Virus genome (UHGV): UHGV-0113881
Length of the DNA stretch: 20,313 bases
Source: a virus
Direction: 5' to 3' (one strand)
Of the stretch, positions 1 through 14,543 are shown one piece after another. Below the pieces are notes generated by a model. It had not been told where the DNA came from and did no database searches. It was given only the letters and a program-made list of their open reading frames with translations. The position numbers were made by a program, and so were the translations under genes. Numbering within the stretch: the first letter of the stretch is position 1; each line of letters starts with the position of its first letter.

Positions 1-118
1 CACAGCCAGCCCATGACGTACCTATATACTCACCGAAGTCTGGCGACTTATATTTGCCATCTGTACACTGGAGGCAATCACAATAGAGATGCATGGTGTA
101 ACTTGCAGCGATAGCCAT
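1..118 (-). CDS. Hypothetical protein, partial (runs off the window start); Cys-rich N-terminus MAIAASYTMHLYCDCLQCTDGKYK...
   Basis: ATG at 118..116 is preceded by AGGAG (6-nt spacer) and overlaps the stop of the upstream gene at 120..122. The frame stays open to the window edge. It is below the ORF-track size cutoff. Confidence 0.3.
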   Translation of the reverse strand, partial: MAIAASYTMHLYCDCLQCTDGKYKSPDFGEYIGTSWAGC

Positions 119-4876: not shown

Positions 4877-5176
4877 TCAAATAAGTGGTTTGCTGCCTAA
4901 TTTCATTTTCTGGCGACCAACACAAGTCACCCCCATTTCACTGCGTGGCTTGCGGTAGTAAATACGGTTCTGTTTACGCTCGACTTCTTCTGCCTTCTTG
5001 CAGCGAAGGCTTCCGAGTGATGCTGCTTTATCTGCTCTGACGCAACCAGAGAGCTTTAGCTCAATTTTTCGCGCCAGTCGCTGCTCTTGCATTGCCTGTT
5101 CACGTTGAGCCTGTCTGCGTGCTCTGCGGCGATTTCTGGCGTTATCGTCAGCCAGATATGTAATTACTACTGTCAT
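4877..5176 (-). CDS. N: Antitermination protein N (100 aa from the MTVV start)
   Basis: The C-terminus RKQNRIYYRKPRSEMGVTCVGRQKMKLGSKPLI matches recalled lambda N (RKNQRTWYSKPGERGITCSGRQKIKGKSIPLI). The arginine-rich motif NARNRRRARRQAQRE lies near the N-terminus. The start MTVVITY resembles P22 gp24 (MTVITYG) and has GGAGG 5 nt upstream. The track ORF 4877..5269 over-extends into the leader. Confidence 0.85.
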   Translation of the reverse strand: MTVVITYLADDNARNRRRARRQAQREQAMQEQRLARKIELKLSGCVRADKAASLGSLRCKKAEEVERKQNRIYYRKPRSEMGVTCVGRQKMKLGSKPLI

Positions 5177-5487
5177 GTTGACCTCCGATGAAACAACTTT
5201 GGAATTGATAGTGATTGCAAAGTGGTTTCTGGCCCCTCGAACTGAGGGGCAGAAAGAGCATCTCGCCACCTAATAGGTCGATGCTCGGATCGAGAGATTT
5301 AATTAACCTCGGTTTTGAAGTTATGCATTCACATAAATCCTCCTGTTGCATGTGCAGCATTGGCTGTGTTTGGCGGCTGCATTTCGCCTATGGAATTGAC
5401 TTTGGCGGTGACGCGCCGGGTGCTTATCTTCAGGTTGCCGTCGTGCAGCTGCACTTCACGTCACCCCAAAGCCAACTACTCTTTGGT

Positions 5488-5529
5488 TCCCGCATTTCGG
5501 CGGGACAATCCCATCAATGTTAAAGAGCC
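5488..5529 (-). promoter_or_regulatory. nutL: boxA (GGCTCTTTAACA) plus boxB hairpin (TCCCGC-cgaaat-GCGGGA)
   Basis: On the minus strand, boxA (5529..5518) matches the CGCTCTTTAACA consensus in 11 of 12 positions. It is followed by a hairpin (5505..5488) whose sequence is identical to the nutR boxB at 7183..7204. It lies between PL and N. Confidence 0.65.
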
Positions 5530-5574
5530 TGCCAATCTGTTCCGTTTGGCTTCCAGCGTCCTGCTGATGGCTAA

Positions 5575-5661
5575 AGAATACTGTAGGTATTTTATTGTGT
5601 AAATACCCAAGGTATTTATTTTTGGTGAAATAATGATAAGCAAATGAATACAAAGGATATT
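5575..5661 (-). promoter_or_regulatory. PL promoter with operators OL1-OL3
   Basis: Three 15-bp sites AATAC-N5-GTATT at 5577..5591, 5602..5616 and 5647..5661 (the last with an ATATT half-site). Minus-strand -35 TTTACA (5598..5603), 17-bp spacer, -10 TATTCT (5575..5580). OL1 and OL2 overlap the -10 and -35. Confidence 0.55.
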
Positions 5662-5748
5662 TATTTTTTTCGGTGTCTGCTTGTTCAGTGCTTTTTATGC
5701 GGGATATGTGAAGTGGATCCCGATAGCTATTGCTGCCGGGATTATGAG

Positions 5749-6117
5749 TTAGTCAGCGAAGGTTAAGACGAGAATTACCTTAATGATGTCTGCTACAACA
5801 GACACGGCCATAGATAAACCAAAGACGATCCAAGCCATAGAGATGTCTTCACTACCATCGTATAGAGTTCCGTAATCACTGGTGTAAGGCGTAAATGTCG
5901 CGCCTTGATACAATAGGTATAAGCTTGATCCATAGAGGATAAATGCAGATATCCCTTGTATTGCCATGATCACCAGAATCATGAAACGAGCTGATCTATA
6001 CGCCCAAGCCTGGCTTATTTTTTCTGATAGAGATTTCGCAATAAAAGCATGCGCTAAGCCGTAAATTGTTGAGATTGCCAACATCCCCAAAAAGCTTGCT
6101 ATAGCGGTTCCAACCAT
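5749..6117 (-). CDS. Small polytopic inner-membrane protein (122 aa from ATG) in the rexAB position
   Basis: Track ORF 5749..6138. The first ATG is at 6117 with AAGGGG 5 nt upstream; an alternative TTG at 6138 overlaps the cI stop. Three hydrophobic helices at about residues 2-26, 44-68 and 93-119. It lies directly downstream of cI on the same strand. Confidence 0.65.
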   Translation of the reverse strand: MVGTAIASFLGMLAISTIYGLAHAFIAKSLSEKISQAWAYRSARFMILVIMAIQGISAFILYGSSLYLLYQGATFTPYTSDYGTLYDGSEDISMAWIVFGLSMAVSVVADIIKVILVLTFAD

Positions 6118-6134
6118 AATCGCCCCTTGCGTGA

Positions 6135-6851
6135 TCAAACCAGCCTTAGTTTTGTCTCAATTGCAACGCCTATAATCTTGCAGTTTCCATTGATTGGCAC
6201 GAGAGGCCATGCAGGATTAAGTCCCTTGAGGTATTTATTTCCGCCGTCGATTATCAGCTTCTTGAATGTTGCTTCGTTAGAGTCAGAAAGTTTTGCTATG
6301 ACCAAGCTGCCGTTGATCGCCTCCCTTCCGGTATCGAAAAGAACGAATGTTCCCTCTGGAATGCTTAACCCAACCGGTGCCGTCATTGAATCACCTTCCA
6401 CTTTAAGCCAGAACGCATTACCTTGAATATGCGCGTCAGACTCAAGCCAAACATCTATGTCTTTAATGGTGTATGGTTCGCATGCTTCACACCACGAGCC
6501 AGCCTGGATACTGCTTAACACCGGATACCTCTTTCCTGCTCTGTATTCCCCTGCATACCTTACGTTGGCATCGCTCTTAAGGCTTTCTGCCTGTTCTGCA
6601 ACCTTGGCAGCAATTGACTGGCTAAAATCAGCAATTGAGACTTGCAACAATCGTGCAAAACCAGATGCAACCTCAACGTTTAGCGCGTTTCTGCCATTAA
6701 GATAATGCCCTACCGCTCCTTGGGTGATACCCAGTTCATCAGCGATTGAGTATTGGGTTATTCCCAATTCTTTCTTTTTTGACTCATACAAAGCCTTAAG
6801 CCGCTTAGCGTCTTCGAGCTGTTCTGTCGTCAGTGATTTTTTATTTTCCAT
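6135..6851 (-). CDS. cI: cI-type prophage repressor (238 aa): N-terminal HTH plus C-terminal S24 autopeptidase
   Basis: It aligns with recalled lambda cI (LTTEQLEDAKRLKALYESKKKELG versus [24 protein letters not shown]). It has the catalytic VEGDSMTAP Ser motif and the FKKL Lys. The recognition helix differs from lambda. The ATG sits exactly where a leaderless PRM transcript would start. Confidence 0.95.
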   Translation of the reverse strand: MENKKSLTTEQLEDAKRLKALYESKKKELGITQYSIADELGITQGAVGHYLNGRNALNVEVASGFARLLQVSIADFSQSIAAKVAEQAESLKSDANVRYAGEYRAGKRYPVLSSIQAGSWCEACEPYTIKDIDVWLESDAHIQGNAFWLKVEGDSMTAPVGLSIPEGTFVLFDTGREAINGSLVIAKLSDSNEATFKKLIIDGGNKYLKGLNPAWPLVPINGNCKIIGVAIETKLRLV

Positions 6852-6857
6852 AGCTTA

Positions 6858-6928
6858 ATTCTAATAGCTAAGGTACTTAAACTAAAAATACCCTGAGTAT
6901 TGATTGCTTTGAATACCTGTAGTATTCT
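6858..6928. promoter_or_regulatory. OR operator region with divergent PRM and PR promoters
   Basis: Sites AATAG-N5-GTACT (6863..6877, OR3-like, degenerate), AATAC-N5-GTATT (6887..6901, OR2) and AATAC-N5-GTATT (6912..6926, OR1). PR: -35 TTGATT (6900..6905), 17-bp spacer, -10 TATTCT (6923..6928). PRM: -10 TAGAAT (minus strand, 6863..6858), ending 6 nt before the cI ATG. Confidence 0.6.
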
Positions 6929-6957
6929 TTGTTCATGGTTAATAACGGAGAGTGCAT

Positions 6958-7152
6958 ATGATTCGAATGACACTTGCCGATTACGCCAAAATCCATGGAC
7001 AGGCTAAAGCAGCCAGTGACTTTGGTGTAATCCAGTGCGCTATCAGCAAGGCCATTCTGGCAGGCCGTAACATCATGGTTACGGTAAAGCCTGATGGCAG
7101 TGTGATTGGAGAGGAAGTTCGTCCTTTCCCAAGCAACAAGAAAAACAAATAG
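6958..7152 (+). CDS. cro: Cro repressor (64 aa from ATG)
   Basis: It matches recalled lambda Cro along its length ([49 protein letters not shown] versus [49 protein letters not shown]). GGAG lies 7 nt upstream of ATG 6958. The track ORF begins at GTG 6952. Confidence 0.9.
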
Positions 7153-7158
7153 TAACAC

Positions 7159-7204
7159 CGCTCTTTAACAGTCATGGTCCTCATTCCCGCCGAAATGCGG
7201 GAAT
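7159..7204 (+). promoter_or_regulatory. nutR: boxA (CGCTCTTTAACA) plus boxB hairpin (ATTCCCGC-cgaaat-GCGGGAAT)
   Basis: A perfect boxA consensus at 7159..7170 is followed 12 nt later by an 8-bp stem with a 6-nt loop (7183..7204). It lies between cro and cII, as in lambda. Confidence 0.65.
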
Positions 7205-7260
7205 ACAACGCGCATAAGTTGATGCGCATAACTTCTTATTTGTTAAGGAAATACTTACAT

Positions 7261-7539
7261 ATGGAACTTACAAGTACTCGCAAGAAAGCGAATGCAATTA
7301 CAAGCAACATCCTGAATCGAATTGCTGTACGTGGTCAGCGAAAGGTTGCCGACGCGTTAGGGATTAATGAATCGCAAATTTCGCGATGGAAAGACAGCTT
7401 CATCCCAAAAATGGGAATGCTTCTGGCTGTTCTTGAATGGGGTGTTGAAGACGAGGAGTTGGCGGAACTGGCTAAGAAAGTAGCCAGAATGCTGACAAAA
7501 GAAAAAGCCCCGAAGAACGGCGAATTCTTCGAGGCCTGA
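7261..7539 (+). CDS. cII: CII transcriptional activator (92 aa)
   Basis: It contains ESQISRWKDSFIPKMGMLLAVLEWGVEDEELAELAKKVA, matching recalled lambda CII (KSQISRWKRDWIPKFSMLLAVLEWGVVDDDMARLARQVA). Track ORF 7174..7539 is over-extended through nutR; the ATG at 7261 is the likely start. Confidence 0.85.
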   Translation: MELTSTRKKANAITSNILNRIAVRGQRKVADALGINESQISRWKDSFIPKMGMLLAVLEWGVEDEELAELAKKVARMLTKEKAPKNGEFFEA

Positions 7540-11084: not shown

Positions 11085-11260
11085 TGCTTAGCCCATCCCA
11101 ATCCATTCAATACCAGAAAGAAAGCGTCGAGCGGGCTTTAACGTGCGCTAACTGCGGTCAGAAGCTGCATGTGCTGGAAGTTCACGTGTGTGAGCACTGC
11201 TGCGCAGAACTGATGAGCGATCCGAATAGCTCAATGTACGAGGAAGAAGACGATGAATGA
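11084..11260 (+). CDS. ninF: NinF-like protein (58 aa)
   Basis: Hand-translated ORF MLSPSQSIQYQKESVERALTCANCGQKLHVLEVHVCEHCCAELMSDPNSSMYEEEDDE, matching recalled lambda NinF. Its start overlaps the upstream stop. It is below the track cutoff. Confidence 0.75.
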   Translation: MLSPSQSIQYQKESVERALTCANCGQKLHVLEVHVCEHCCAELMSDPNSSMYEEEDDE

Positions 11261-11975
11261 GTTAATAAATGGCAATGCCATCAAAATGACAAGCATTGAA
11301 ATCGCTGAGTTGGTGGGTAAGCGTCATGACAATGTGAAACGTACCATCGAAACGCTGGCTAAAAATGGTGTTATCCGGCTTCCTCAAATTGAGGTTTCCG
11401 AAAGAATCAATAACTTAGGGTTCAATGTTCAGTACGAGCATTACGTCTTCGAAGGCGAACAAGGTAAGCGAGACAGTATTGTCGTTGTTGCCCAGTTGTC
11501 GCCAGAGTTCACCGCTCGCCTTGTTGACCGCTGGCGAGAGCTTGAAGAAGCTGCGGTTAATATCCCAAAAACGCTACCAGAAGCGTTGCGCCTTGCTGCT
11601 GACCTTGCTGAGCAGAAAATGCAACTGGAAAACCAGCTCGCAATTGCCGCACCTAAAGTTGAGTTTGCCGATCGCGTTGGCGAGGCCAGCGGAATTTTGA
11701 TTGGAAACTTTGCAAAGGTTGTTGGAATTGGTCCAAACAAACTGTTTGCGTGGATGCGAGATCACAAAATCCTTATTGCTTCAGGTTCCCGGCGAAATGT
11801 GCCAATGCAGGAATATATGGAGCGCGGCTATTTCACAGTGAAAGAAACAGCGGTCAACACAAATCACGGAATACAGATATCGTTCACCACAAAAATCACC
11901 GGGCGTGGTCAACAGTGGCTGACCAGAAAGCTGCTCGATAACGGAATGCTGAAAGTAACAGGGGAGGCTGCTTAA
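11253..11975 (+). CDS. Rha-family phage regulatory protein with a C-terminal KilA-C/ORF6C-type domain (antirepressor-like, 240 aa)
   Basis: Track ORF. The N-terminus (ELINGNAIKMTSIEIAELVGKRHDNVKRTIETL) is typical of the Rha domain. The C-terminal half (ASGILIGNFAKVVGIGPNKLFAWMRDHKIL) is typical of the antirepressor C-terminal domain. These are recalled family signatures. Confidence 0.7.
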   Translation: MNELINGNAIKMTSIEIAELVGKRHDNVKRTIETLAKNGVIRLPQIEVSERINNLGFNVQYEHYVFEGEQGKRDSIVVVAQLSPEFTARLVDRWRELEEAAVNIPKTLPEALRLAADLAEQKMQLENQLAIAAPKVEFADRVGEASGILIGNFAKVVGIGPNKLFAWMRDHKILIASGSRRNVPMQEYMERGYFTVKETAVNTNHGIQISFTTKITGRGQQWLTRKLLDNGMLKVTGEAA

Positions 11976-13864: not shown

Positions 13865-14068
13865 ATGTACCGTATGGACAAAATCAGAGAATGGTTCAGT
13901 TACAGCTTCGGAGGACTGACTGCGATGGGTGGCATTCTCTCCCTGAATGACTGGGCTGTCATCATTGGTATTCTTTGTACTGTCGGCACATTTGGCATCA
14001 ACTGGTACTACAAGCGCAAAGAGCGCGAGGACAGATTGAATGGCAATGTCACCGGCACTACGAAATAG
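13865..14068 (+). CDS. Class II holin (67 aa) with dual-start motif, S21 pinholin-like
   Basis: Two transmembrane helices ([17 protein letters not shown] and [20 protein letters not shown]) and a charged C-terminus. The MYRMDKI start has two Met codons flanking a basic residue, like the MKSM start of phage 21 S. The RBS is GGGGTAGAG. Confidence 0.8.
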
Positions 14069-14543
14069 CGTAATAGCGGCGATAAGTGGCGGGGCTATTG
14101 CTATAGCATCTGTGTTAATCACTGGACCAAGTGGTAACGATGGTCTGGAAGGTGTCAGCTACATACCATACAAAGATATTGTTGGTGTATGGACTGTATG
14201 TCACGGGCATACAGGAAAAGACATCATGCTCGGTAAAACGTATACCAAAGCAGAATGCAAAGCACTCTTGAATAAAGACCTTGCCACTGTCGCCAGACAA
14301 ATTAACCCGTACATCAAAGTCGATATACCGGAAACAACGCGCGGCGCTCTTTATTCGTTCGTCTACAACGTGGGCGCAGGCAATTTCAGAACATCGACTC
14401 TTCTTCGCAAAATCAACCAGGGCGATATCAAGGGCGCATGTGACCAGCTACGTCGCTGGACATACGCTGGCGGTAAGCAATGGAAAGGGCTGATGACTCG
14501 CCGTGAGATTGAGCGTGAAGTCTGTTTGTGGGGGCAGCAATGA
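14040..14543 (+). CDS. SAR endolysin (T4-lysozyme-type glycoside hydrolase, 167 aa)
   Basis: N-terminal Gly/Ala-rich signal-anchor-release segment ([19 protein letters not shown]). Catalytic triad spacing E-x8-D-x5-T in [16 protein letters not shown]. From memory it is very similar to phage 21 R. Its start overlaps the holin end. Confidence 0.85.

Follow-up and report, generated by a model that had tools for sequence, protein, structure and literature searches.

HkaS, a small predicted inner-membrane protein encoded behind the cI repressor of HK620-type prophages, as a candidate superinfection-exclusion factor

Every lysogenic cell expresses the genes that lie directly behind its prophage repressor, and in the cases studied, such as lambda rexAB, these repeatedly prove to be defence genes. 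Lambda RexB has four transmembrane helices. T4 Imm and HK97 gp15, both small proteins of the inner membrane, act singly to block genome delivery and leave the cell alive, and both 933W Stk, a kinase, and BTP1 BstA, a cytoplasmic DNA-binding abortive-infection protein, are defence proteins encoded by repressor-adjacent cargo. The inner-membrane protein SieA of P22 is sufficient to block DNA delivery (PMC10883804 / PMC10461980). The described Rex-type systems are all two-component (PMC12894663). The repressor-adjacent slot has itself been recognised as prophage-expressed, "like rexA and rexB" (PMC2629481). Here we consider the gene that occupies this slot in the UHGV virus genome UHGV-0113881, a stretch of 20,313 nucleotides (hereafter the window, meaning this whole stretch) from a mosaic P22-like genome (Lederbergvirus) with a P22-type portal. 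The gene is hkaS of coliphage HK620, which encodes a small predicted inner-membrane protein, and to its existing catalogue entries we add the narrowness of the family, a second genomic slot, a contrast in selection between hkaS and cI, and a confident structural model without relatives.

The open reading frame (ORF) in question matches PHROG 6534 over its full length (E=2.9e-77), and its product shares 95% identity with HK620 HkaS (AAK28867). For HK620 HkaS and the RefSeq entries WP_000233126/8/9, amino-acid identity to the window protein is 95-98% and the length is the same 122 residues. The similarity extends well beyond the gene, since region 5400-7200 of the window shows 99% DNA identity with HK620, HK630, HK140, mEpX2, HF4s, vB_EcoP_phi296/phi367 and two Stx2c phages. 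HK620 carries the same gene, likewise set between cI and OL and next to identical operators and PL, the window allele differing by H40Y. The gene and its junction with cI are as follows.

5749..6117, minus strand: hkaS coding sequence, 122 amino acids plus stop; the product is predicted to reside in the inner membrane, with three helices, an external N-terminus and an internal C-terminus.
6118..6138, minus strand: cI-hkaS junction, read from the sequence, with the cI TGA, an upstream TTG and a Shine-Dalgarno sequence.

The longest frame for hkaS is 5749..6138 (minus strand), giving 129 residues from a TTG at 6138-6136 that overlaps the cI stop codon (TGA, 6137-6135). This TTG, the start taken in an earlier reading of the window made from its letters (the original prediction), is not kept here. 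We prefer the family-wide start, the ATG at 6117-6115 that gives 122 residues, because the seven extra residues fall outside the family profile and are missing from all other lineages. The PHROG 6534 profile covers ORF residues 8-129 as positions 1-122 of its 122, all homologues begin at the Met of the 6117 ATG, and the coding sequences in HK620 and RefSeq are 369 nt long. A Shine-Dalgarno sequence, AAGGGG, lies at 6128-6123. The gap between the cI stop and the hkaS ATG is 17 nt, in keeping with the original prediction of a gene on the same strand within about 20 nt of the repressor.

The 2001 GenBank record of HK620 gives the hkaS product as "unknown" and draws a terminator, tIMM, after the gene. 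PHROG 6534 is annotated as of unknown function, and the other source records offer only "hypothetical protein". The ORF is nevertheless a catalogued member of the HkaS / PHROG 6534 family in a recognised accessory slot, and so is not a new sequence. The original prediction, which recognised no characterised family, thus stands as regards functional and fold relatives, of which we find none, but overlooked the existing entries; "orphan" is accurate for the function and fold of HkaS, not for its cataloguing. The identity of hkaS, its coding status and the membrane location of its product are, in our judgement, very likely correct.

Database coverage shows the family to be a narrow one. Of 50,697 phage records, 16 contain the gene. 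Among complete E. coli genomes it occurs in 146 of 5,426 (about 2.7%), where all 147 copies are chromosomal; the window-type cI was likewise counted in 146 complete E. coli genomes. Its hosts comprise E. coli, Hafnia paralvei and a small number of Salmonella, and among 185,579 species-representative genomes hkaS was found solely in an uncultured Buttiauxella, at 54% identity. A word-indexed search of 5.8 billion clusters yielded 11 HkaS clusters, and an exhaustive hidden Markov model (HMM) search of 1.84 billion 50%-identity representatives retrieved only the representative of HkaS itself and a 44-residue fragment. In a set of about 15 billion proteins the family forms a single cluster at 50% identity, and it is confined to prophages of the Enterobacterales.

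Evolutionary rates were compared between hkaS and its neighbour cI. All 90 of the 90 extracted hkaS copies are intact 122-residue frames, and this length is kept in all lineages. Compared with the Hafnia-type allele (dS 0.63-0.75), hkaS has a ratio of nonsynonymous to synonymous divergence (dN/dS) of 0.15-0.17; for two distant lineages in which synonymous change is near-saturated, the ratio is 0.04. Within 111 E. coli-type copies, synonymous diversity (piS) is 0.033 for hkaS and 0.028 for cI, whereas nonsynonymous diversity (piN) is 0.0089 against 0.0005, 18-fold higher in hkaS, so that piN/piS is 0.27 for hkaS and 0.02 for cI. Between lineages the two genes have similar synonymous divergence (0.76 for cI, 0.63 for hkaS), which indicates that they have been inherited as one unit, but dN is 0.107 for hkaS and 0.015 for cI, with protein identities of 60% and 84%, respectively. 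Comparisons at deeper divergence give 84-97% identity for cI and 60-80% for HkaS, and overall the HkaS protein changes 4-7 times faster than cI. The GC content of hkaS is below that of the neighbouring genes, as suits an accessory gene. The gene is thus not a chance ORF but a real, selectively maintained one, under purifying selection that is clear yet much weaker than that on cI.

These data bear directly on whether hkaS might be a functionless passenger, trapped between cI and OL and kept since its removal would break the immunity module. Linkage with cI is 1:1, amino-acid polymorphism is raised, at 18 times the piN of cI, and some alleles are frameshifted. A 77-residue remnant is found in HF4s (L012:1501-1865) and also in E. 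coli FVEC1302 and T426, and its presence in all three shows that this allele circulates and did not arise from faulty sequencing. A different frameshift, at codon 75, is carried by two metagenome contigs (L126 and L127). Against this, dN/dS is well below 1 at all depths, reaching as low as 0.04, lineages with only 53-60% identity still share 37 invariant positions, the frame and its exact length of 122 residues are kept in all lineages, and the gene persists in a second slot that lacks cI (see below). We therefore give the passenger explanation very little credence.

The three predicted membrane helices claimed originally for a single small protein were found again, in the 122-residue form, by both hydropathy and structure prediction. 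A Kyte-Doolittle plot (19-residue window, segments above 1.6) gives hydrophobic segments at approximately 1-27, 42-66 and 91-122. The AlphaFold2 model, built on a six-sequence alignment, has a mean pLDDT of 93.2 and a pTM of 0.80, and contains helices at 2-29 (plus 31-38), 41-74 and 89-121, with a beta-hairpin within 75-88. The two loops differ sharply in charge: loop 27-44 has K28, K33, R41 and R44 against E32, for a net charge of +3, and loop 71-93, an acidic Tyr/Gly-rich hairpin, contains D81, D87, E90 and D91 with no basic residue, for a net charge of -4. By the positive-inside rule, the N-terminus and the hairpin are predicted to be periplasmic, and loop 27-44 and the C-terminus cytoplasmic.

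Across nine aligned sequences, from lineages down to 53% identity, the 37 invariant positions are spread through the protein. Helix 1 has an invariant face of small residues (G3, A5, S8, G11 and S16), the putative cytoplasmic loop contributes K33, Q36, W38 and A43-R44-F45, and helix 2 contributes Q54 along with Y67-L68-L69 at its predicted periplasmic end. Further on, A95-W96 is invariant, as are D110, K113 and Thr119 among the polar residues inside helix 3. The final six residues, VLTFAD, are invariant too, and the protein stops directly after helix 3.

At codon 40 (5998-6000) the window encodes Tyr, inside the conserved cytoplasmic motif QAW.H(R/K).ARF. The other eight aligned sequences all have His here, as do the remaining alleles of the 90 translated copies.

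The proximity to cI naturally invites comparison with RexB, and the original prediction had offered a RexB-like channel acting alone as one possibility. The two genes do share a location, after cI and before OL in the PRM operon (a putative one for hkaS), and both products are small polytopic inner-membrane proteins. RexB, however, is 144 residues long to the 122 of HkaS and has a RexA partner where HkaS has none; there are three helices, not four, and one gene, not two; and profile comparison with hhalign gives a probability of 0.3%, so that a relationship to RexB is unsupported. The other comparisons proposed at the outset were similarly negative. With hhalign, HkaP of HK620, a SieB-like protein, scores a probability of 0.2% and no Pfam match links it to HkaS, and lambda S and the P21-type holin of the window itself score 0.2% each, with no Pfam holin at E<=1. 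More broadly, Pfam at E<=1 produced no match to HkaS apart from a sub-threshold TssN, and nothing was matched in NCBIfam, in the PADLOC-DB v2 defence models at E<=10 or in a sequence profile search of the PDB. Foldseek searches with the model against BFVD and PDB found no match at E<=0.001. We place HkaS outside the RexB, SieB, holin and PADLOC families, as both homology and the defining features of these fail. It does resemble the single-gene membrane exclusion proteins, a functional class and not a homology family, in being a small prophage inner-membrane protein from a putatively lysogen-expressed unit, expression being judged here from gene layout.

Even without kinship to RexB, HkaS could do the job of RexB as an abortive-infection effector: an oligomer acting as a gated pore or membrane perturber, triggered directly by a phage or host cue without a sensor protein, would depolarise the infected cell and abort the infection. 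The gene does occupy the rexAB slot, the invariant in-helix residues Gln54, Asp110, Lys113 and Thr119 could line a pore, and the small-residue face of helix 1 (G3, A5, S8, G11, S16) is typical of helix-helix packing. RexB-type effectors are, moreover, membrane proteins with poorly conserved sequences (PMC12894663), yet HkaS shows no similarity to RexB and differs from it in helix number, and has no partner gene where every described Rex-like system has two genes (PMC12894663). A constitutive pore would need gating, of which the sequence gives no suggestion, and a sister clade is found in a late, lysis-associated region, where suicide makes less sense. We regard an abortive effector as distinctly unlikely.

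That sister clade, at 57-59% identity to HkaS, is found in three contigs (L002:51-419, L128:2393-4475 and L129:29-2327) with no repressor nearby. There the hkaS homologue starts 22 nt after a phage tRNA-Thr, the last of a three-tRNA cluster (called as Met-CAT, Phe-AAA and Thr-TGT); after it come a 72-residue ORF and genes for a P21-type holin, a lysozyme and an Rz spanin. The ribosome-binding region of hkaS has travelled along with the gene into this slot. The context is unannotated in any record examined. This position between tRNA genes and lysis genes is the stx slot of Shiga-toxin phages.

The association with cI is otherwise tight. In 80 of 81 loci from IMG/VR and genomes, the distance from the end of cI to the hkaS ATG is 17-20 nt, the exception being a locus that begins at a contig end. 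To the left of OL, in contrast, hkaS loci vary, with several N types and different early genes, and the phages that carry cI-hkaS include P22-like (HK620, HF4s), lambda-like (HK630) and Stx-type (phi296, phi367) examples as well as Stx2c phages. Since both the genes left of OL and the virion types differ, the cI-hkaS-OL block evidently moves as a module. The Buttiauxella lineage (L014:4333-5369 and L131:1102-2138) shows a finer reassortment: the helix-turn-helix (HTH) of the repressor and cro differ from those of the window, but the repressor keeps nearly the same S24 C-domain and is then followed by hkaS, so that this chimeric repressor places a recombination joint inside cI, between its two domains. 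A functional tie of hkaS to cI specificity was considered and rejected, both on the differing DNA-binding domain and cro in Buttiauxella and on the sister clade without cI. The HkaS family behaves as a mobile accessory gene in two classical lambdoid cargo slots.

The sister clade also raises the question of a role in lysis, HkaS serving as an antiholin-like partner that tunes hole formation or shields the lysogen from a leaky holin. Class I holins such as lambda S105 are indeed similar in layout, with approximately 105-120 residues, three helices and an N-out/C-in topology like that predicted for HkaS, and the sister clade immediately precedes a holin-endolysin-spanin cassette in each of three independent contigs. 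Those cassettes, however, are already complete, and HkaS has neither sequence similarity to class I holins (hhalign 0.2% against lambda S and the P21-type holin of the window, with no Pfam holin) nor their charged C-terminal tail, since it ends at helix 3. More than 95% of known copies, that of the window included, are in the repressor operon, from which holins are not made, far from lysis genes; in the window the lysozyme gene (14040-14543) is about 8 kb from hkaS, with no endolysin adjacency. Given its place in the repressor operon HkaS cannot be a lethal holin, and we hold modulation of a holin to be very unlikely.

We tentatively favour, at well below even confidence, a function for HkaS as a lysogen-protecting accessory protein, most probably acting by non-lethal superinfection exclusion at the inner membrane. 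In outline, hkaS would be the second and last gene of the cI transcription unit in HK620-type lambdoid and P22-like prophages, made in lysogens through read-through from PRM and, during establishment, from PRE. The protein would insert in the inner membrane with its acidic hairpin facing the periplasm, and might hinder entry of an incoming phage genome through the hairpin itself or through a host membrane protein that the phage needs. It would act alone, with no requirement for a sensor partner. We favour exclusion because HkaS stands alone, because its conserved hairpin is predicted to face the periplasm, because it evolves quickly relative to cI, as would fit a protein involved in conflict, because there are late-region copies, and because SieA, T4 Imm and HK97 gp15 provide functional precedents. 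Exclusion would also suit both slots, since it could be useful in lysogens and in late lytic growth alike, where suicide is not.

The likeness to SieA is that of a small single-gene inner-membrane protein, SieA blocking genome delivery without killing (PMC10883804). It does not extend to sequence, fold or place: between HkaS and SieA, T4 Imm or HK97 gp15 there is no Pfam or PHROG cross-match and no BFVD fold match, and genomic locations differ, sieA for instance sitting in the ant region of P22, unlike hkaS behind cI. Conversely, genes 44/45 of epsilon34 share the repressor-adjacent slot, with its variable lysogen-expressed cargo, and their proteins are unrelated to HkaS (PMC2629481).

Several observations count against exclusion. 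The literature search, on hkaS, its carrier phages and accessions, returned no functional study, no report of exclusion or abortive infection, and no phenotype, transcript or protein data for hkaS. There is no homology or fold likeness to known exclusion proteins by Pfam, PADLOC, hhalign or Foldseek. The piN/piS of 0.27 and the occasional frameshifted alleles amount to only moderate constraint. The cI-hkaS module is common to phages with unrelated virions, and such different virions make it unlikely that HkaS is a blocker tuned to the injection machinery of its own carrier. Finally, hkaS may owe its position between cI and OL to nothing more than hitch-hiking, and small three-helix membrane proteins serve many other roles.

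One such role would be that of a conversion protein unrelated to defence, for example in immunity to a colicin or microcin, or in modulating a host membrane protein, such as a protease, a transporter or a component of a stress pathway. Immunity proteins of the colicin E1/Ia type are three-helix inner-membrane proteins of about 110 residues, so that HkaS resembles the immunity proteins of pore-forming colicins in size and architecture. The family is confined to gut Enterobacterales (E. coli, Salmonella, Hafnia and Buttiauxella), bacteria that commonly wage war with colicins, and the conserved cytoplasmic QxW.H(R/K).ARF and C-terminal VLTFAD suggest a host-side partner and not a variable phage target. 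Set against these points, no colicin or microcin immunity family is matched in Pfam at E<=1 (there is only the sub-threshold TssN), no toxin gene is nearby, and both slots of the family are phage slots. Colicin immunity genes are normally plasmid-borne beside their colicin, whereas 147 of 147 E. coli hkaS copies are chromosomal. We judge a conversion function to be unlikely.

A more general proposal is that HkaS founds a new family of stand-alone inner-membrane anti-phage proteins, in which one 122-residue gene suffices against heterologous phages and which makes use of two cargo slots. This takes in either an entry block or partner-free abortive infection as the mode of action, and we consider it possible but doubtful. 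The gene offers an easy test case, being a single small gene available in the tractable phages HK620, mEpX2 and HK630, and in Stx-phage backgrounds. Should HkaS exclude phages, it would represent a new minimal membrane defence without a fold relative, relevant to the prediction of host range in E. coli phage therapy; should it exclude nothing, it would be one more conserved prophage accessory gene. Current understanding is not overturned in either event, and the value of the locus lies in a well-defined and cheap candidate.

Expression in lysogens, on which the favoured reading of exclusion depends, is suggested by the layout of the immunity locus, the relevant elements of which are listed here.

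6135..6851, minus strand: cI repressor, 238 amino acids, HTH_3 and Peptidase_S24 (Pfam); upstream gene of the putative cI-hkaS operon.
6862..6935, no strand assigned: OR3-OR2-OR1 and PR, exact matches to the HK620-annotated operators and pR.
5717..5742, minus strand: GC-rich hairpin AUCCCGGCAGCAAUAGCUAUCGGGAU, 7 nt past the hkaS stop; RNA fold about -15 kcal/mol; no U-tract.
5636..5666, minus strand: equivalent of tIMM, an AT-rich palindrome overlapping OL3; HK620 annotation, mapped approximately; undetected by the terminator scan.
~5623-5639, minus strand: OL3, HK620-annotated operator at an approximate position, about 110 nt beyond hkaS.
5601-5617, minus strand: OL2, exact match to the HK620-annotated sequence.
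5576-5592, minus strand: OL1, exact match to the HK620-annotated sequence.
5568-5603, minus strand: PL promoter, exact match to the HK620-annotated sequence.
5488-5529, no strand assigned: nutL, exact match to the HK620-annotated sequence.

The repressor is 99.6% identical in amino-acid sequence to that of HK620. To its right, and divergent from it, are Cro (6958-7152) and CII, and an N-type antiterminator is on the left. The PRM that would drive cI-hkaS, divergent from PR, must on this layout lie within 6862..6935. The other boundary of the hkaS slot, downstream of the gene, is the OL/PL block, and mapping of the HK620 sequences to 5568-5639 bears out the placement of hkaS in the rexAB position between cI and OL/PL. 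Within these limits hkaS is the sole ORF backed by any family or annotation; there is no second gene between cI and OL and hence no RexA-like partner, again as originally described.

On the minus strand, a consensus scan from cI down to PL found no promoter-like site before PL, the site detected (5603..5575) coinciding with PL itself. The same kind of scan found no terminator-like site between cI and hkaS, and an intrinsic-terminator scan called no minus-strand terminator anywhere from cI to PL. The hairpin at 5717-5742 may form the 3' end of the immunity transcript or stabilise it, or may be a weak terminator. Every rex-slot lineage has a GC-rich hairpin at the equivalent place after hkaS, its sequence differing each time, and that of the Buttiauxella locus L014 has the U-run of a canonical intrinsic terminator. 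The HK620 record, however, puts tIMM at the palindrome that overlaps OL3, not at this hairpin. The 17-nt gap, the ribosome-binding site and a hairpin or terminator before OL together point to expression of hkaS in lysogens, where it would probably close the PRM/PRE immunity transcript, an assumption already made by the annotators of HK620.

Some minor observations concern neighbouring parts of the window. The ORF for N (4877-5269, minus strand), 130 residues from a GTG, is overlong, and N probably starts at an ATG near 5175 (MTVVITYLADDNARNRRRARR...), a start that keeps the arginine-rich motif. The cII ORF (7174-7539, plus strand; 121 residues) is similarly overlong, with a probable start at ATG 7261 (MELTSTRKK...). 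The leader from PL to N, 5176-5567, is about 390 nt long, exceeds that of lambda and holds nutL; in the equivalent region of one RefSeq genome (L009:938-1354) a plus-strand hypothetical protein is annotated. Lastly, the nin region contains a Rha/KilAC antirepressor-type (roi-like) gene at 11253-11975 on the plus strand, unrelated to hkaS, which is a second regulatory input to the lysis-lysogeny switch.

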